Origin: Acidimicrobiia bacterium
Lineage (GTDB): Bacteria > Actinomycetota > Acidimicrobiia > Spongiisociales > ZC4RG35
Direction of reading: 5' to 3'
DNA length: 64,000 nt
Assembly: GCA_965203555.1 (NCBI GenBank)
Contig: CBDBCY010000004.1
Location: 136,961 to 200,960 of the forward strand
The stretch's first letter is position 1, and each line of letters starts with the position of its first letter. The notes beneath the pieces were generated by a model. The model searched no databases and was not told the origin of the DNA. It was given only the letters and a program-made list of their open reading frames with translations. A program made the translations under genes and the position numbers. Positions 2,219 to 62,888 of the stretch are shown here, piece by piece.

Positions 2219-3426
2219 GCCTTCCCGACCAACCGTTGCTCTCTCCGGATGACCCTGACCTGGCGGAACAGGCGAGCAAATGGCGCTCGCTCTATCTGCA
2301 CATTCCGTTCTGCGAGCAGGTCTGTCCCTACTGTGACTTCGCGGTGGCTGCGGGAGAGGACCATCTCGCCTCCCGCTATTCCAAGGCGCTGATCGCCGAG
2401 ATCCGCTCCGCCCCTGAATGGGGGCCCCTGGAGGCCGTCAACTTCGGGGGAGGCACCCCGTCTCGGATGCCGGTCCGATGGTTGCGGAAGATCCTGGAAG
2501 AGGCGATCTGTCGTTTTGGTCTCGCCGCGGGAGCGGAGGTGAGTCTGGAGGCCAATCCCGAGGATTGGACACCGGGCAAGGCGTCGCAACTGGTGGCCGC
2601 CGGGTTCAACCGGGTGTCGTTGGGCGCCCAGTCCTTCGACCCGGTGGTGCTTGCCTACCTGGGGCGCCGGCACAGCCCCGAAGACATCACCCGGTCGGTG
2701 GCCGCTGCCCGAAGCGCCGGATTCCGGTCGGTGAACCTGGATCTGATAATGGGATCCCCACCCGAGGACGCCGCGTCGTGGTCGGCCACTTTACGGCGCG
2801 CCTTAGCTTGCGAGCCGGACCATCTCTCCACCTACGCCCTGACGGTGGAACCGGGAACCGTGCTGTGGAAGAAGGTCCGATCCGGCGCAAGCGCTCCGGA
2901 CGCCGATAGGCAGGCCGATTGCTGGGAGGAGGCGGACAAGGTGTGCCGGGCGGCGGGACTGGTGCGATATGAAGTCTCCAACGCCGCCCGGCCCGGGCAC
3001 CCTTGCCGCTACAACCTCTCCGTGTGGGGCCAGGGAGAGTACCTGGGGTTCGGAAACGGGGCTCACTCCTTTCAACAGGGGCGAAGGTGGGAGAACGTAC
3101 GGGACCTGCGCCGTTACCTGGATGCTGTGGAAAGCGGTGCATCACCGGGCAGAAGATACGAGAAAGTAGAAGGGTGGTCGGCGGAGACGGAGCGCCTGCT
3201 GCTGGGCATCCGGAGGCGGGCCGGCGTGAAGAAAGGCAAGGCGGGTGGAGTGCTGTGGCATTCAGGGCCGGGCCGCAGGCTCAGGGCGGCAGAGGTAATC
3301 AGTTCGCACCGGGGACGTCTTCGAGTGGAGCGTCCCCTGTTGACCGACGAGGTGAGCCGGGCCATCCTGGCCATCCGGCCACCGGGTGAGAGCCGAACCG
3401 GGTCCCTGGAGGAAAGCCTTTCATAG
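2215..3426 (+). CDS. hemW: Radical SAM heme chaperone HemW / HemN-like protein
   Basis: Radical-SAM motif [10 protein letters not shown] and HemN-like C-terminus. ORF track opens at 2083 (135-nt overlap with lepA); TTG at 2215 overlapping the lepA stop (TTGA) is the more likely start. Confidence 0.85.
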
Positions 3427-12388: not shown

Positions 12389-12654
12389 ACTGCTCGTTCG
12401 GGCAGATACGAACCCCCGCTGGCGGCGAGTGTTCGTGCCGCGGAGGGTTCTGTGCCTCTGTTATCTCGGGGTGAAAGCAGGGAAGTATGTCGAGATTTGG
12501 GGAGGGGCTACCTGTGGTTTAGTGCAAGGCGTGGGCCGATGACCCCAATGGTGGGGGTCCTCCACAATTCGGGTGCGTGAGATCGGAGGCCAGGAGCGAG
12601 TATGTGCAGGGAGAGCAAGGCATCCGGACACCGATGGGTTCCCCCTCTTTCCGG

Positions 12655-12888
12655 CTATCGCTTATCGAGATACTCCAAGACCTGTCGGAAACCCCGGTCG
12701 AGTTTCTCGTCCGTGGCCTGACGATTCACGTCTATTTTGACGTTGAGCAGGTGAATGTCGTGTTTCACCTCGGCGAAATCGTGTTTCACTTCGGCGATAT
12801 CCTGTTTCACCTCCGCGATGTCGCGTTTCACCTCGGAGATGTCGTTCCCGATGCGTCTCTGCAGGCTGTTGAGGGCATCGGCGGTCAT
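12655..12888 (-). CDS. Small coiled-coil protein, paralog 1 (77 aa), unknown function
   Basis: ORF MTADALNSLQRRIGNDISEVKRDIAEVKQDIAEVKHDFAEVKHDIHLLNVK...; heptad repeats DIxEVKx; AAGGA 10 nt upstream of the ATG. Strand choice is not certain (see rejected). Confidence 0.5.
   Translation of the reverse strand: MTADALNSLQRRIGNDISEVKRDIAEVKQDIAEVKHDFAEVKHDIHLLNVKIDVNRQATDEKLDRGFRQVLEYLDKR
12760..12843. repeat. 4 x 21-bp in-frame tandem repeat (consensus gtgtttcacctcggcgatatc)
   Basis: Units at 12760, 12781, 12802 and 12823; each encodes one DIAEVKx heptad on the minus strand. Confidence 0.8.
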
Positions 12889-13130
12889 CGAAGCGACGTC
12901 CTTGGCGTCATGCTTCCCGAGTATATCCGGGATCGGCTGTCAATGCCACAGACGCGTCCGCTGCTTGCCTGTGATCTCATCCGGTCCGTCCACCGCGTTC
13001 CAGGATCATCTTCTCTTTGTTCAGCGTCCTTGCTCTGGTAGCGGCCCTCTGTCGGGAGATCGGGAGAGTCGTTTCAATGTAGCAGGGATAGCATGGCAGT
13101 CGGACACCGATGGGTTCCCCCTCTTTCCGG

Positions 13131-13367
13131 CTATCGCTTATCGAGATACTCCAAGACCTGTTGGAAACCCCGGTCGAGTTTCTCGTCCGTGGCCTGACGA
13201 TTCACGTCTATTTTGACGTTGACCAGGTGAATGTCGTGTTTCACTTCGGCGATGTCCTGTTTCACCTCCGCGATGTCGCGTTTCACCTCGGAGATGTCGT
13301 TCCCGATGCGTCTCTCCAGGCTGTTGAGGGCATCGGCAGTCATCGAAGCGATGTCCTTGGCGTCCAT
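13131..13367 (-). CDS. Small coiled-coil protein, paralog 2 (78 aa; 70 aa if started at the conserved internal ATG at 13343)
   Basis: ORF MDAKDIASMTADALNSLERRIGNDISEVKRDIAEVKQDIAEVKHDIHLVNVK...; same family as 12655..12888 but one heptad shorter. Confidence 0.5.
   Translation of the reverse strand: MDAKDIASMTADALNSLERRIGNDISEVKRDIAEVKQDIAEVKHDIHLVNVKIDVNRQATDEKLDRGFQQVLEYLDKR
13236..13298. repeat. 3 x 21-bp in-frame tandem repeat (same family as 12760..12843)
   Basis: Units at 13236, 13257 and 13278. Confidence 0.8.
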
Positions 13368-13595
13368 GCTTCCCGAGTATATCCGGGATCAGCTATCAAG
13401 GCCACAGACGCGTCCGCTGCTTGCCTGTGATCTCATCCGGTCCGTCCACCGCGTTCCAGGATCATCCTCTCTTTGTTCAGCGTCCTTCTTTTGGCAACGG
13501 CTCTCAATAACACAGAAACCAATGGCGCAGACCAAGGCCGTTCGTTTACTGAAGTAGAGCATTTTGCTGTTGTCTGATATCCTTATTGGTGCATT

Positions 13596-23155: not shown

Positions 23156-23199
23156 GAGGCATTGCTGTGGCTGCTGACCGAGGGCATCGTCTCCTGCGC

Positions 23200-25284
23200 A
23201 TGCGTCAGGTGCCCCTGAGTCGCACCCGCAATATCGGAATCATGGCCCACATCGATGCAGGAAAGACCACTCTGACCGAGCGGATTCTTTACTACACCGG
23301 TCGCAACTACAAAATCGGGGAGGTCCACGAGGGCGCCGCCACCATGGATTGGATGGCACAGGAGCAGGAGCGGGGAATCACCATCACCTCTGCCGCCACC
23401 ACCTGTATCTGGCACGATCACAGCATCAACATCATCGACACTCCGGGTCATGTCGATTTCACCGTCGAGGTGGAACGTAGTCTTCGAGTCCTGGATGGGG
23501 CGGTGGCGGTATTCGACGGGGTGGCGGGAGTGGAACCACAGTCGGAGACGGTGTGGCGGCAGGCCGACCGCTACGAAGTTCCCCGCATCTGCTTCATCAA
23601 CAAACTCGACCGACTGGGGGCGGACTTCTTCGCCGATGTGGAATCGATCCGCACCCGACTCAACGCAACACCTCTGGTGGTCCAACTGCCCGTGGGTGAG
23701 GAGAGTGATTTCCGAGGTGTTCTGGACCTGGTGGAAATGCAGATTCACGAGTGGCGGGGGGACGACGGCAGGCACTGGGACACCGGCGACATCCCCGAAT
23801 CGATGCAGGACCTGGCTTATGAATACCGGGCGCGGATGTTGGAGCAGGTAGCCGAGGTTGACGAGAAACTCCTGATCAAGTTCCTCGAAGATCTGTACAT
23901 AACCCCCGACGAGATCCGAACCGCTATCCGTACGGGGGTGCTTCAGCACATGTTCGTGCCGGTGCTTTGTGGTGCGGCCTTCAAGAACAAGGGAGTGCAG
24001 CCGCTGCTTGACGCCATTGTCCACTATCTGCCCAGCCCCTTGGACCTTCCTCCGGTGAAGGGTTTCGCCCCCAAGAATCCGGAACAGGTTCTGGAACGGA
24101 AGGCCAATGACGACGAGCCATTTTCGGCTCTCGCCTTCAAGATCATGAGCGATCCCCACGTCGGCAAGCTCACCTATTTCCGGGTCTATTCGGGCTCGGT
24201 CTCCAAGGGCGGCGCGGTGTTCAATACCACCAACGGCAAGAAGGAGCGCCTGGGACGGCTGCTTCGCATGCATGCCAACCATCGTGAGGATGTCAACATT
24301 GTTTACACCGGTGACATCGTGGCGGCGGTGGGATTGCGACACACCACCACCGGCGACACCCTTTCCGGTGTCGGTCACCCCATCAGCCTGGAATCGATGG
24401 CCTTTCCCGCGCCGGTTATCTGGGTAGCCATCGAGCCTCGCACCAGGGTTGACCAGGACAAGTTGTCCGAGTCCCTGCAAAAGCTGTCGGAGGAGGACCC
24501 GACCTTTCTGGTGAGAAGTGACGAAGAGACCGGGCAAACCATCATCTCGGGAATGGGCGAGCTCCACCTGGAGGTATTGGTGGACCGGCTGATCCGGGAA
24601 TTCAAGGTCGCGGCCAACATCGGTAAGCCGCAGGTCGCCTATCGAGAATCAATCCTGTCGGCCGTAGAGAAAGTGGAAGGCCGTTACGTCCGCCAGAGTG
24701 GCGGCCGGGGTCAGTACGGTCATGTCGTCATCGACATCGAACCCACCGGTCCCGGAGGAGGTTACGAATTCGTCAACAAGATCAGGGGCGGTCGCGTCCC
24801 CCGTGAATACATTCCGGCGGTGGCCGCCGGCATCGGAGAGGCTCTCGATGGGGGTATCCTGGCGGGCTACCCGGTGGTGGATGTGCGGGTCACCCTGGTT
24901 GACGGTTCACATCATGAAGTAGATTCTTCCGAACTGGCCTTTCGGATAGCCGGTTCCATGGCTGTTCGCGCCGCCACCAACAAGGCGGGGCTGAAACTGC
25001 TGGAGCCGGTGATGGAAGTCGAGGTGGTCACTCCCGACGAGTACATGGGAGACGTGATCGCCGACATTTCCGCTCGCCGGGGCCGTATTGGAGAAACCGA
25101 TCAGCGGGGATCGGCCCGGCTAATCACCGCCGCCGTACCGCTGGCCGCAATGTTCGGCTTTGCTACTGATATCCGGTCCAGGACTCAGGGGCGAGCAACG
25201 TATTCGATGCAATTCAAGGCTTACCAAGATGTTCCTGACTCTATTTGTCAGGACATCCTTCATTTGAGAACTGGTAAGTATTAG
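23200..25284 (+). CDS. fusA: Elongation factor G
   Basis: [28 protein letters not shown] motifs. ATG 23200 gives the usual N-terminal length; in-frame GTG 23167 is an alternative. Confidence 0.95.
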
Positions 25285-26497
25285 AAATGGGGGTGTTTGG
25301 TTGTGGGTAAGGTGAGGTTTGAGCGGGTGAAGCCGCATTTGAATGTGGGTACTATGGGTCATATTGATCATGGGAAGACTACGTTGACTGCTGCGATTAC
25401 TAGGGTGTTGTCTGAGCGGGTTGGTGGGGTGAATGTGGTGACTGGGTTTGATGATATTGATCGTGCTCCTGAGGAGCGTGAGCGGGGTATTACGATTCAG
25501 ATTGCGCATGTTGAGTATGAGACTGTTTTGCGTCATTATGCGCATGTGGATATGCCGGGGCATGCGGATTATATTAAGAATATGATTACGGGGGCGGCTC
25601 AGGTGGATGGGGCGGTGTTGGTGGTGTCGGCGGTTGATGGTCCGATGCCGCAGACTCGTGAGCATGTGTTGTTGGCGCGGCAGGTGGGTGTGCCGCGGAT
25701 TGTGGTGTTTTTGAATAAGTGTGATTTGGTGGATGATGGTGAGTTGTTGGATTTGGTGGAGTTGGAGGTTCGGGATTTGTTGACGGAGTATGAGTTTCCG
25801 GGTGATGATGTTCCGGTGGTGAGGGGTTCGGCGTTGTTGGCGTTGGAGGGTGATGTGGTGGCTGGTGATGGGGTTATGGAGTTGATGGATGCGGTTGATG
25901 GGTATGTTGATGTGCCGGTTCGGGATGTGGATCGTCCGTTTTTGATGCCGATTGAGGATGTGTTTTCGATTACTGGTCGGGGTACGGTGGTGACTGGTCG
26001 GGTTGAGCAGGGTGTGTTGCGGGTTGGTGAGGCGGTTGAGGTGGTTGGTTTGCGTGATACGCGTGGGTCGGTGGCTACTGGTGTGGAGATGTTTAGGAAG
26101 TTGTTGGATGAGGGTCGGGCTGGTGATAATGTGGGGGTGTTGTTGCGGGGGGTGGGGAAGTCGGAGGTGGAGCGTGGTCAGGTGTTGGCTGCTCCTGGGT
26201 CGATTTTGCCGCATGTGGGTTTTGAGGCGCAGGTGTATGTGTTGACGAAGGAGGAGGGGGGGAGGCATAATCCGTTTTTTTCGGGTTATCGTCCGCAGTT
26301 TTATTTTCGGACTACGGATGTGACGGGTTCGGTGTTGTTGCCTGTTGGGGTGCAGATGGTGATGCCGGGTGATAATGTGGAGTTGTCGGTGGAGTTGATT
26401 GCTCCGATTGCGATGTCGGTGGGGTTGGATTTCGCGATTCGTGAGGGTGGTCGGACTGTGGGGGCGGGTCGGGTCACCAAGATCACCAAATAACCCC
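25283..26497. repeat. 1,215-bp block apparently identical to 61421..62635 (tuf plus 20 nt of leader and 4 nt after the stop)
   Basis: Identical translations in sense, sense-shifted and antisense frames for both copies, plus spot checks of the nucleotide lines at offset 36138. Confidence 0.9.
25303..26493 (+). CDS. tuf: Elongation factor Tu, copy 1 (tufA-like position after fusA)
   Basis: [24 protein letters not shown] motifs. GTG 25303 gives [12 protein letters not shown], matching canonical EF-Tu length; ORF track opens at TTG 25297. Confidence 0.95.
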
Positions 26498-26583
26498 AAA
26501 CCCAAGAAGGCAAAGGATTGTGGACAACAACCGGCAAGGGCAAGTAGAGAATAAGCCGAGCAAGCGAGGACAGTAGAAGAGAC

Positions 26584-26895
26584 ATGAACGGTTCCCATAA
26601 GATCCGCATAAAGCTCAAGGCTTATGACCATCAGAGTGTGGATGAGTCAGCGCGCAAGATCGCTGCTACGGTTACTCGTACCCAGGCCAAAATAAGAGGT
26701 CCTGTTCCGTTGCCTACCGAGATCCACAGATACTGCGTTATACGCGGACCCCATGTCGATAAAGACTCCCGGGAACACTTCGAGATGCGCATTCATAAGC
26801 GGTTGATCGATATCTTGGATCCAACCGCTAAAACGGTTGATTCATTGATGCGCCTTGATCTTCCTTCCGGAGTGGAAGTAGAGATAAAGCTGTGA
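26584..26895 (+). CDS. rpsJ: 30S ribosomal protein S10
   Basis: 103-aa ORF, S10 homology, head of the S10 operon. Confidence 0.95.
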
Positions 26896-61103: not shown

Positions 61104-61185
61104 GCCGGGATACCCAAGCGGCCAAAGGGAGCAGACTGTAAATCTGCCGGCGATGCCTTCGGAGGTTCAAATCCTTCTCCCGGCA
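61104..61185 (+). tRNA. tRNA-Tyr (anticodon GTA), long variable arm
   Basis: Acceptor GCCGGGA/TCCCGGC, anticodon stem-loop GCAGA-CTGTAAA-TCTGC, T arm GGAGG-TTCAAAT-CCTTC; CCA not encoded. Confidence 0.9.
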
Positions 61186-61209
61186 CCGGCTTTCCCGCAA
61201 AGACCAAGC

Positions 61210-61283
61210 GCCCCCTTAGCTCAGACGGCCAGAGCGCCTCCATGGTAAGGAGGAGGTCTCCGGTTCGAATCCGGAAGGGGGCT
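61210..61283 (+). tRNA. tRNA-Thr (anticodon GGT)
   Basis: Acceptor GCCCCCT/AGGGGGC, anticodon stem-loop CCTCC-ATGGTAA-GGAGG, T arm TCCGG-TTCGAAT-CCGGA. Confidence 0.9.
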
Positions 61284-61314
61284 CCCCCGTGCGGCCCGCG
61301 CCGACTACGGGTAA

Positions 61315-61388
61315 AGGCGGCGTAGCTCAGTTGGTAAGAGCGCTCGACTCATAATCGAGAGGTCGGCAGTTCAAGTCTGCCCGCCGCT
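61315..61388 (+). tRNA. tRNA-Met (anticodon CAT), elongator type
   Basis: Acceptor GGCGGCG/CGCCGCT, anticodon stem-loop CTCGA-CTCATAA-TCGAG (no GGG/CCC initiator signature), T arm GGCAG-TTCAAGT-CTGCC. Confidence 0.88.
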
Positions 61389-61420
61389 ACATGGAACCAA
61401 AGACAGCTATCGATAAATAC

Positions 61421-62635
61421 AGAAATGGGGGTGTTTGGTTGTGGGTAAGGTGAGGTTTGAGCGGGTGAAGCCGCATTTGAATGTGGGTACTATGGGTCAT
61501 ATTGATCATGGGAAGACTACGTTGACTGCTGCGATTACTAGGGTGTTGTCTGAGCGGGTTGGTGGGGTGAATGTGGTGACTGGGTTTGATGATATTGATC
61601 GTGCTCCTGAGGAGCGTGAGCGGGGTATTACGATTCAGATTGCGCATGTTGAGTATGAGACTGTTTTGCGTCATTATGCGCATGTGGATATGCCGGGGCA
61701 TGCGGATTATATTAAGAATATGATTACGGGGGCGGCTCAGGTGGATGGGGCGGTGTTGGTGGTGTCGGCGGTTGATGGTCCGATGCCGCAGACTCGTGAG
61801 CATGTGTTGTTGGCGCGGCAGGTGGGTGTGCCGCGGATTGTGGTGTTTTTGAATAAGTGTGATTTGGTGGATGATGGTGAGTTGTTGGATTTGGTGGAGT
61901 TGGAGGTTCGGGATTTGTTGACGGAGTATGAGTTTCCGGGTGATGATGTTCCGGTGGTGAGGGGTTCGGCGTTGTTGGCGTTGGAGGGTGATGTGGTGGC
62001 TGGTGATGGGGTTATGGAGTTGATGGATGCGGTTGATGGGTATGTTGATGTGCCGGTTCGGGATGTGGATCGTCCGTTTTTGATGCCGATTGAGGATGTG
62101 TTTTCGATTACTGGTCGGGGTACGGTGGTGACTGGTCGGGTTGAGCAGGGTGTGTTGCGGGTTGGTGAGGCGGTTGAGGTGGTTGGTTTGCGTGATACGC
62201 GTGGGTCGGTGGCTACTGGTGTGGAGATGTTTAGGAAGTTGTTGGATGAGGGTCGGGCTGGTGATAATGTGGGGGTGTTGTTGCGGGGGGTGGGGAAGTC
62301 GGAGGTGGAGCGTGGTCAGGTGTTGGCTGCTCCTGGGTCGATTTTGCCGCATGTGGGTTTTGAGGCGCAGGTGTATGTGTTGACGAAGGAGGAGGGGGGG
62401 AGGCATAATCCGTTTTTTTCGGGTTATCGTCCGCAGTTTTATTTTCGGACTACGGATGTGACGGGTTCGGTGTTGTTGCCTGTTGGGGTGCAGATGGTGA
62501 TGCCGGGTGATAATGTGGAGTTGTCGGTGGAGTTGATTGCTCCGATTGCGATGTCGGTGGGGTTGGATTTCGCGATTCGTGAGGGTGGTCGGACTGTGGG
62601 GGCGGGTCGGGTCACCAAGATCACCAAATAACCCC
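61421..62635. repeat. Second copy of the 1,215-bp tuf block (partner of 25283..26497)
   Basis: Same evidence as copy 1. After the identical part, similarity continues about 10 nt across a 2-nt C-run indel. Confidence 0.9.
61441..62631 (+). CDS. tuf: Elongation factor Tu, copy 2 (tufB-like position after a tRNA cluster)
   Basis: Translation identical to copy 1; located 52 nt after tRNA-Met on the same strand. Confidence 0.95.
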
Positions 62636-62696
62636 CCAAACCCAAAGACTGACGCCAATAGCGCAAGAAGCCAGGACGTAAGAAAGAAAGCAACCG

Positions 62697-62888
62697 ATGC
62701 CAAGTGACAAGAGACCCCCGGTGAAACTTGCCTGCACCGAGTGCAAGCGGCGCAACTACGTGACCACCCGCGGCAGGGCGAACCAGCACGACAAGGCGCA
62801 GCGCCGCAACCTCGTGCGAGGCCGGTTGGTGCTTCGCAAGTACTGTCGGTGGTGCCGCATTCACACTTCCCACCGGGAAACGCGATAG
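62697..62888 (+). CDS. rpmG: 50S ribosomal protein L33
   Basis: 63-aa [15 protein letters not shown] ... [14 protein letters not shown] zinc-ribbon pattern. Confidence 0.88.

Follow-up and report, generated by a model that had tools for sequence, protein, structure and literature searches.

Near-exclusive use of G- and T-ending codons in the duplicated tuf genes of an Acidimicrobiia lineage, and a possible origin in keto-biased gene conversion

We analyzed a stretch of 64,000 nucleotides (hereafter, the window) from the genome of an Acidimicrobiia bacterium (assembly GCA_965203555.1, contig CBDBCY010000004.1, forward-strand positions 136,961 to 200,960). The window carries two identical copies of tuf, the gene of the elongation factor EF-Tu, in the canonical genomic contexts fusA-tuf-rpsJ and tRNA-tuf-rpmG. 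Both copies are written almost exclusively in NNK codons, that is, codons with a keto base (K; G or T) rather than A or C (M) at the third position. The pattern in the first copy, tuf1, had been pointed out in an earlier note made from the letters of the sequence.

The open reading frame (ORF) of tuf1 consists of 396 sense codons and a TAA stop, and our recount found codons 1–376 to end in G or T throughout. The first exception is TTC at codon 377 (position 26431), and the remaining ones among the sense codons are GTC 391, ACC 392, ATC 394, ACC 395 and AAA 396; counting the stop, the third position holds G 229 times, T 161 times, C 5 times and A twice. Two-fold codons ending in a pyrimidine (two-fold Y) have T in 99% of cases and two-fold purine-ending codons have G in 99%, while four-fold sites are nearly all G (0.62) or T (0.37) and leucine is TTG for all 34 codons. 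The 15 nt preceding the GTG start codon (25288..25302) are likewise exclusively G and T, and an alternative in-frame TTG start is found at 25297. On all these points, from the length of the run to the uniform leucine codons and the pure G/T leader, the earlier note had read the sequence correctly.

As a measure of the bias we used K3, the fraction of codons with G or T at position 3. In 17 other genes of the window, including fusA, ribosomal-protein genes, secY and groEL, K3 is 0.42–0.57, which upholds the note's view that the pattern is not a general or expression-linked codon bias. Given a background K3 of ~0.52, the chance of a run of 376 such codons would be ~1e-107. The G+T content exceeds 68% in 300-nt segments only at the two tuf blocks (25.5–26.4 kb and 61.6–62.5 kb) and is 63–81% within the blocks versus 45–57% in their flanks; the minimum of the window, 36% on the plus strand, falls in the A/C-rich segment 1–300, probably part of a minus-strand gene. 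The GC content of tuf is 0.54, compared with ~0.61 for the window, with C eliminated and T gained, and the gene does not show the preference for G+C over A+T that defines GC-biased gene conversion (gBGC).

The product is a full-length EF-Tu, as the note had claimed. The Pfam domains PF00009 (GTP_EFTU; 1.4e-60), PF03144 (D2; 9.7e-18) and PF03143 (D3; 4.4e-35) all exceed their curated cut-offs and complete the three-domain architecture, and the G motifs and SAL are intact in the translation. Its residue counts are shifted, with V rising from ~40 to 65, G from 37 to 47, L from 26 to 34 and R from 21 to 30, and K, T, I, E, Q and N depleted. The shift toward V, G, L and R noticed earlier is thus real, and it reflects a 26:2 bias toward G/T at replacement sites, described below.

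Table 1. Positions of the tuf copies and associated features in the window
Feature	Position	Strand	Remarks
tuf1 (EF-Tu)	25303..26493	+	str operon context fusA-tuf-rpsJ; GTG start; codons 1–376 NNK
Repeat block, copy 1	25283..26497	+	20-nt leader, coding sequence (CDS) and 4 nt; 100% identical to copy 2
Repeat block, copy 2	61421..62635	+	36,138 nt downstream of copy 1, in direct orientation
tuf2	61441..62631	+	CDS identical to tuf1; tRNA-tuf-rpmG context
Pure G/T leader	25288..25302	+	Between GGGGG Shine–Dalgarno region and GTG start
3' tail, keto run breaks down	26431..26493	+	TTC 377; GTC ACC AAG ATC ACC AAA TAA; ancestral C-ending codons kept
tRNA-Tyr(GTA), tRNA-Thr(GGT), tRNA-Met(CAT)	61104..61390	+	Directly upstream of tuf2; arrangement kept in relatives
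fusA (EF-G)	23167..25284	+	K3 0.50, normal codons; ends 18 nt before tuf1; sharp 5' boundary
rpsJ	26584..26895	+	Downstream of tuf1; K3 0.56, normal codons
rpmG (L33)	62697..62888	+	Downstream of tuf2; translation with CxxC...RNY; Pfam Ribosomal_L33 at that position in relatives
Antisense ORF, 503 aa	25120..26631	-	By-product of NNK usage
Antisense ORF, 522 aa	61387..62955	-	By-product of NNK usage

Several smaller observations concern the surroundings of the genes (Table 1). Members of the NNK clade have a GTG start and a G/T-only spacer after a GGGGG Shine–Dalgarno sequence; a group of tuf genes with 83–85% protein identity to the window has ATG after GAGGAG. The leader is G/T-only in every clade member, and its sequence and length vary. 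The long antisense ORFs arise because reverse-complemented NNK codons begin with A or C and are never stop codons; gene finders could mis-call both. The spacers after tuf (26494–26583 and 62632–62696, and those of the related loci L166, L167, L171 and L172) are 63–78% A+C and G-poor, for example ccccaacaaaccaaaacaaaaa, and their first 4–38 nt are common to the paralogues. The spacers may serve for Rho loading or as a leader element, or may just reflect the intergenic style of the lineage, which is A-rich. Elsewhere, a tandem duplication at 12606–13505, with a unit of ~455 nt at 92–97% identity and internal 21-nt (7-aa) repeats similar to GTGTTTCACCTCGGCGA, seems to encode small repeat proteins, in either strand and frame.

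Searches for exact matches to the tuf protein (with each of its two possible starts), to a 77-mer from the gene and to rpmG found none (for the tuf protein and the 77-mer, in two collections), and a metagenome scan had no NNK-clade member among the matches listed; a protein search recovered them. An exact look-up of the rpsJ product led to independent metagenome contigs with the same gene order as the window, on which tuf differs from the window copy at 28–67 nt and has K3 of 0.985–0.987, with normal fusA, rpsJ and rplC. The full pattern is also present in a complete chromosome of an Acidimicrobiia metagenome-assembled genome (MAG; OZ242375.1, L006) and on three further long contigs (L166/167, L171/172 and L168); in L171/172 the sense codons outside the NNK class are limited to TTC 377 and ATC 394. 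At least seven other assemblies, several of them long-read and from different samples, carry diverged tuf orthologues with K3 of 0.975–0.99. The NNK orthologues have 85–98% protein identity and 16–56 third-position differences, and they conserve the synteny and both genomic contexts. The proteins closest to the window EF-Tu are those of Acidimicrobiia, and sample names (e.g., PetF) and the type of MAG accession suggest that the relatives are sponge-associated members of this class.

These relatives bear on the possibility of an artefact, of synthetic NNK-recoded DNA or of a recent foreign insertion. NNK is a familiar design of synthetic libraries, and the resemblance, together with the absence of the exact protein and 77-mer from two collections, would fit such an origin. 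The note had likewise listed foreign, engineered or mis-assembled DNA as one of three options, (c). That option fails in view of the independent assemblies, at least seven, with diverged and syntenic orthologues in the same gene order, the Acidimicrobiia EF-Tu proteins as nearest relatives and a graded K3 series in related families; we give it next to no credence.

The graded series starts from normal Acidimicrobiia tuf genes (L032, L049 and L031), which have K3 of 0.38–0.45 and nearly no A-ending codons. They strongly prefer C, which takes 0.62–0.64 of four-fold and 0.92–0.96 of two-fold Y sites in L032 and L049. As A-ending codons are already missing there, the anomaly at synonymous sites is a progressive loss of C. 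K3 is 0.64–0.73 in Microthrixaceae, 0.78–0.82 in Ilumatobacteraceae, 0.77–0.90 in the large group 83–85% identical to the window protein, 0.86–0.94 in further metagenomic lineages and 0.975 in L168, and the flanks of tuf are ordinary in every lineage of the gradient. The last sites to be converted are two-fold Y and Ile codons of the conserved G domain: five C-ending codons (50, 63, 90, 91 and 93) persist in an otherwise pure-K 5' third in L169, L170, L173–L181, L086 and L087. These codons, for Phe, Ile, His, Asp and Tyr, lie where translational selection for C would be expected to peak, and they seem to be under unusually strong selection to keep it.

The same comparison speaks to translational selection, by which the tRNA pool or wobble modifications would favor G/U-ending codons or translation would be made independent of U34, Q34 or I34 modification. 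NNG and NNU codons are readable by unmodified C34 and G34 tRNAs, and codon bias is normally strongest in tuf. It is also the gene hit hardest here, and the near absence of A-ending codons from normal Acidimicrobiia tuf is a further likeness to translational bias. The direction is, however, opposite to the C-ending optima of the lineage, to which normal Acidimicrobiia tuf strongly adheres, and is not shared by highly expressed genes: the ribosomal-protein genes, fusA and groEL of the window prefer C (63% C at two-fold Y sites of the flanks; C3 of 0.50 in groEL). Non-coding and replacement sites are affected as well, and translational selection leaves the G/T-only leader, the GTG start, the amino-acid shift and the exempt tail unexplained. 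We regard this explanation as effectively refuted by the codon usage of the neighboring highly expressed genes.

Among NNK-clade orthologues, the third positions of tuf differ at 0.04–0.11 per site, and the differences are almost all exchanges between G and T (40/44, 15/16 and 50/52). The genes adjoining tuf differ at 0.21–0.43 per site in the same comparisons, with transitions about as frequent as transversions. Exchange between G and T is thus close to neutral, A and C are never admitted, and the constraint is on base class and not on a specific sequence. Purifying selection on EF-Tu is evident in the 10–18 amino-acid differences compared with 16–56 at third positions.

The note had proposed polarizing the substitutions against relatives and testing whether the pattern is lineage-wide; it is clade-wide. 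At the position-1 and -2 sites that could be confidently polarized on the branch to the clade, there are 26 changes from A/C to G/T and 2 in the reverse direction. The 38 polarized changes consist of A>G 14, A>T 6, A>C 5, C>T 4, G>T 3, C>G 2, C>A 2, G>A 1 and T>C 1, so that transversions between the classes A>T and C>G are one-way, 6 and 2 versus 0 in reverse. The frequency of A falls from 0.26 to 0.18 at position 1 and from 0.32 to 0.26 at position 2, and that of C from 0.21 to 0.16 at position 1 and from 0.225 to 0.195 at position 2, which accounts for the gain of V, G, L and R and the loss of K, T, I, E, Q and N. The start codon has changed from ATG to GTG in the clade, and EF-Tu replacements on the NNK branch are about twice as many as on the sister branch.

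A constraint at the level of base class can be due neither to a conserved protein on the antisense strand nor to a specific RNA structure. The note's option (b) had combined selection on the mRNA with selection on the antisense strand. The former remains a rival and is weighed below, while selection on an antisense product is excluded, as G/T swaps at sense position 3 alter antisense position 1 and the H/Q/T/P/R/N-rich, low-complexity antisense translation has no Pfam family. Pairing of the mRNA ends, in which the leader segment GGGGGUGUUUGGUU would bind the 3' segment AACCAAAUAACCCC, was rejected: it is not conserved in L001 or L006 and is expected between any G/U-rich and A/C-rich segments. 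We also discarded G-quadruplexes, as the 39 GGG runs form no canonical motif. RNAalifold predicts a long-range helix between UGGUGAU..GGUGAU (26357–26373) and the non-K tail codons GUCACC..AUCACCA (26473–26488); it is invariant across the clade, with a covariation term of +0.67 and no compensatory change in the helices, and could be a 3' protective stem or a chance match.

The polarized changes are most telling for strand-specific mutation, the note's option (a), in which the single-stranded non-template DNA of transcription bubbles or self-reinforcing R-loops would be deaminated (C>T and A>G) to saturation. A coding-strand excess of G+T is the classical signature of transcription-associated asymmetry, in which C>T and A>G lead, and the tuf genes match it. 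A>G is the commonest polarized replacement and, with C>T, makes up 18 of the 38; C>T would explain all changes at two-fold Y sites and from CTG to TTG in leucine, the 5'-high gradient of the bias resembles start-proximal transcriptional asymmetries, and G-richness could feed back on R-loop stability. The direction proposed in the note was therefore right. The note had also doubted that transitions are sufficient, and the transversion asymmetry of 8 versus 0, not predicted by deamination chemistry alone, justifies that doubt. Known transcription asymmetries, moreover, amount to a few percent, grow with expression and affect the transcription unit as a whole, whereas the pattern here is saturating, confined to one gene, bounded by homology and extends beyond deamination transitions to transversions. 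The co-transcribed fusA, up to its stop 18 nt upstream, the tRNA–tuf spacer and the 3' region are unaffected, and the pattern, which breaks off ahead of the stop codon, gives way to A/C-rich sequence. We detected no promoter-like site at the start of the block and no intrinsic terminator after tuf. Saturation would need a ratio of forward to reverse rates above ~100 in one gene while ribosomal-protein genes stay at K3 of ~0.5, and the link to the homology edges would be unexplained. We consider deamination quite improbable as the source of the pattern.

That link concerns the second copy of the gene, which for the note was a matter of checking the assembly; the duplication and its homology boundaries are central to our analysis. 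The flanks of the two identical blocks are unrelated to each other, although beyond 26497 the homology of copy 1 extends to ~26509 with one indel. In the four genomes with both copies on one contig, 36–119 kb apart, the paralogues differ at 0, 0, 6 and 4 nt, as against 28–80 nt between orthologues, and their flanks are unrelated. With paralogues closer than orthologues and homology limited to the gene, the copies evolve in concert. A protein found at the species level (P0149) occurs in both tuf contexts across samples. In unbiased scans, 5 of 13 high-K3 tuf genes but 7 of 94 low-K3 genes lie at a distance of 0–15 nt from a contig end (P = 0.006), as is typical of repeats collapsed in assembly.

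The bias coincides with the homology block and is polar within it. Keto-loading begins ~5 nt inside the 5' homology edge and ends 25–50 nt before the 3' edge in 4/4 two-copy genomes; the tail of tuf1 (Table 1) lies within this distance of the edge. In the four genomes, the numbers of non-K tail codons are 12, 5, 3 and 1, with 3' homology reaching 0, ~16, ~27 and 38 nt past the stop. Within tuf genes, K3 peaks at the 5' end and falls sharply in the last decile, and the residual differences between paralogues are all (8/8) at nt 558 or later (P = 0.006), indicating that the bias is strongest where homogenization is strongest. Duplication alone is insufficient, since tufA and tufB of Escherichia coli evolve in concert (13 nt differences) in an organism with MutS/MutL repair and have ordinary codons (K3 of 0.50, with 87% C at two-fold Y sites).

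Two irregular cases were seen among the copies. L167 and L166 differ at three adjacent positions (3403–3405 in both; tuf nt 903–905), CAA versus TTT, which alters one codon and makes ATC 301 the only internal non-K codon of L167; the cluster may be a fresh multi-nucleotide mutation awaiting erasure by conversion. On a contig of 2.09 Mb (ERZ28493278 ctg4075607_15x_l; L175:1-4191), tuf stands in a chimeric fusA-tuf-rpmG context, produced either by recombination between the two copies or by an assembly mis-join through the repeat.

We propose, with a probability of roughly 0.4, that the NNK composition is caused by strand-specific, keto-biased gene conversion between the two tuf copies. Actinobacteria lack MutS and MutL and rely on NucS/EndoMS instead. 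When an incoming strand anneals in living Mycobacterium smegmatis, NucS repairs only the G-G, G-T and T-T mismatches, with an effect above 500-fold, and leaves every other mismatch alone (PMC11551767); homeologous recombination is suppressed 3- to 10-fold by NucS (PMC5290159). The base class favored in tuf is exactly this substrate class of G/T-only mismatches, transversions included and with G and T neutral to each other. Within the class Acidimicrobiia, nucS is reported to be present in Ilumatobacter coccineus, and the tuf K3 of 0.78–0.82 in Ilumatobacteraceae counts in favor of the proposal.

Under this proposal, the two copies would evolve in concert by conversion with a sense-strand preference for G/T. 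One copy would serve as template for an antisense strand that anneals to the sense strand of the other copy. In a tuf gene co-oriented with replication, this sense strand would be the template of the lagging strand, and gap repair or a template switch there would be expected to transfer the antisense strand. A recipient A or C facing a donor G or T would then create an A-C, A-A or C-C mismatch, invisible to NucS if the enzyme is present in the lineage and acts on such heteroduplexes, and the site would convert to G/T. In the opposite case, the G-T, G-G or T-T mismatch would be repaired back or the exchange aborted, while differences between G and T or between A and C would be unbiased. New G/T mutations would in this way spread to both copies and new A/C mutations be erased, and the drive could override the translational preference for C-ending codons and fix about 20 extra, mildly costly amino-acid replacements and the change of start from ATG to GTG. 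NucS filtering would thereby reproduce the keto class, the neutrality between G and T and the one-way transversions. The nascent antisense strand would enter the block from the 3' side of the gene and would need a minimal length of homology before the template switch; entry after ~25–50 nt of homology would give the exempt 3' tail and the rise toward the 5' edge.

The most probable alternative is selection on the composition of the tuf mRNA, the surviving part of option (b). A G/U-rich and C/A-poor message could resist Rho or RNase E, or be less structured, and so secure the synthesis of EF-Tu when translation and transcription uncouple. The rut sites of Rho are C-rich and G-poor, and actinobacterial RNase E cleaves 5' of C. 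Such selection would agree with a loaded region running from the Shine–Dalgarno sequence to near the stop codon, with the weak effect in the last ~40 codons, as if late Rho-loading could not cause intragenic termination, and with the 60 nt after the stop, which are 63–78% A+C with G at most 27% in 7/8 NNK-clade copies (43% A+C in the eighth, L168). The predicted folding energy weakens from -0.44 to -0.32 kcal/mol/nt, a 27% drop, and a fixation bias would cover transversions as well. Selection on the mRNA does not explain, however, why the end of the keto run follows the 3' edge of the paralogue homology inside the 3' untranslated region, or why the bias is greatest where the paralogues are most homogenized. 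The very highly expressed ribosomal-protein operons, fusA and groEL show nothing of the kind. Two refined versions were rejected: for Rho avoidance, T is not avoided before C and YC dinucleotides are not specifically purged, and for minimal mRNA structure, random shuffles among NNK synonyms are predicted to fold no more strongly than the actual gene. A trait with diminishing returns should neither purge every C against translational selection nor drive ~20 extra protein replacements, and the exact favored class, G+T, would have no explanation. We judge selection on the mRNA unlikely, though well short of negligible.

A number of points weigh against keto-biased conversion as well. No NucS-like match was found in the window or the related loci, a weak negative since these cover a small part of the genome, and NucS is patchy in Acidimicrobiia, being reported absent in Acidimicrobium ferrooxidans. 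In L169 (K3 of 0.77), tuf lies at one place on a contig of 2.64 Mb and no close paralogue is listed; this is either a counter-example or decay after the loss of a copy. The Ilumatobacteraceae and Microthrixaceae loci may come from genomes with or without a second tuf copy, and the tests on contig ends, homology edges and residual differences were post hoc with small samples. The asymmetry of strand transfer and the direction of tuf with respect to replication are both assumptions; the sole hint of the latter is the forward tuf at 0.47 of the 2.61 Mb of L006. The homology block nearly equals the Shine–Dalgarno sequence plus the ORF, for which RNA-level selection predicts similar outer limits. 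The tandem duplication at 12.6–13.5 kb is not keto-loaded; it is short and possibly recent, and we dropped it as an internal control because it is too short and too different to decide. Finally, tuf conversion in Salmonella initiates uniformly and runs both ways (PMC5485169), unlike the polarity required here.

The enteric tufA and tufB are otherwise the nearest parallel, with two near-identical copies in str-operon and tRNA-adjacent contexts (PMC5485169), homology confined to the gene and long-term homogenization. Conversion is reported to be unbiased in position and direction there, and the codons are ordinary; in the NNK clade homogenization is polar, with A and C wholly lost at free sites. 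The proposed process resembles gBGC in being a recombination-linked fixation bias that mimics selection, overrides codon preference, fixes slightly deleterious replacements and is confined to recombining tracts. It differs in that gBGC favors the strong bases G+C, whereas here the keto bases are favored and C is purged, and the effect is strand-specific, acts between paralogues and is saturating. NucS/EndoMS, found in Actinobacteria and Archaea, acts on annealed incoming strands and in homeologous recombination, and its role in NNK tuf would be an extension of this. We know of no description of a compositional consequence of its specificity. The nearest idea is in a 2026 preprint on M. tuberculosis, which reports T>C enrichment in paralogous regions, suggests that NucS is less active during recombination and considers that recombination-associated repair asymmetries may reshape the composition of paralogous regions (PMC13061034). 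Our literature searches found no prior description of natural NNK-type genes, in tuf or otherwise, or of keto-biased conversion, in agreement with the note's statement that no described system produces the pattern.

We found no earlier account of an essential natural gene with as many as 393 NNK codons in a row, and the pattern is stable across a clade and has graded precursors. Neither translational selection nor a mutation bias of the whole genome is thus needed for the synonymous sites of a gene to be fully determined; another force can do so and can reshape the sequence of EF-Tu as well. If RNA-level selection should be the cause, the clade would have an unusually strong composition constraint on the most abundant mRNA of the cell. 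If NucS-filtered conversion is correct, the tuf genes would bear the first compositional footprint of non-canonical mismatch repair and represent a new class of biased gene conversion, an evolutionary force analogous to gBGC by which repeated genes are rewritten to G/T saturation and amino-acid change is pushed in a protein that ranks among the most conserved known. Somewhat more doubtful than the case of tuf itself is the generalization that the keto-only substrate range of NucS/EndoMS amounts to a strand-specific keto conversion drive across Actinobacteria, and potentially in NucS-bearing Archaea. With NucS-filtered conversion as the cause, caution would be due with tuf, rRNA spacers and other repeated markers in actinobacterial phylogeny, codon-adaptation indices and dN/dS analyses, and orientation-dependent keto or amino skews would be predicted in every repeat family of NucS organisms.

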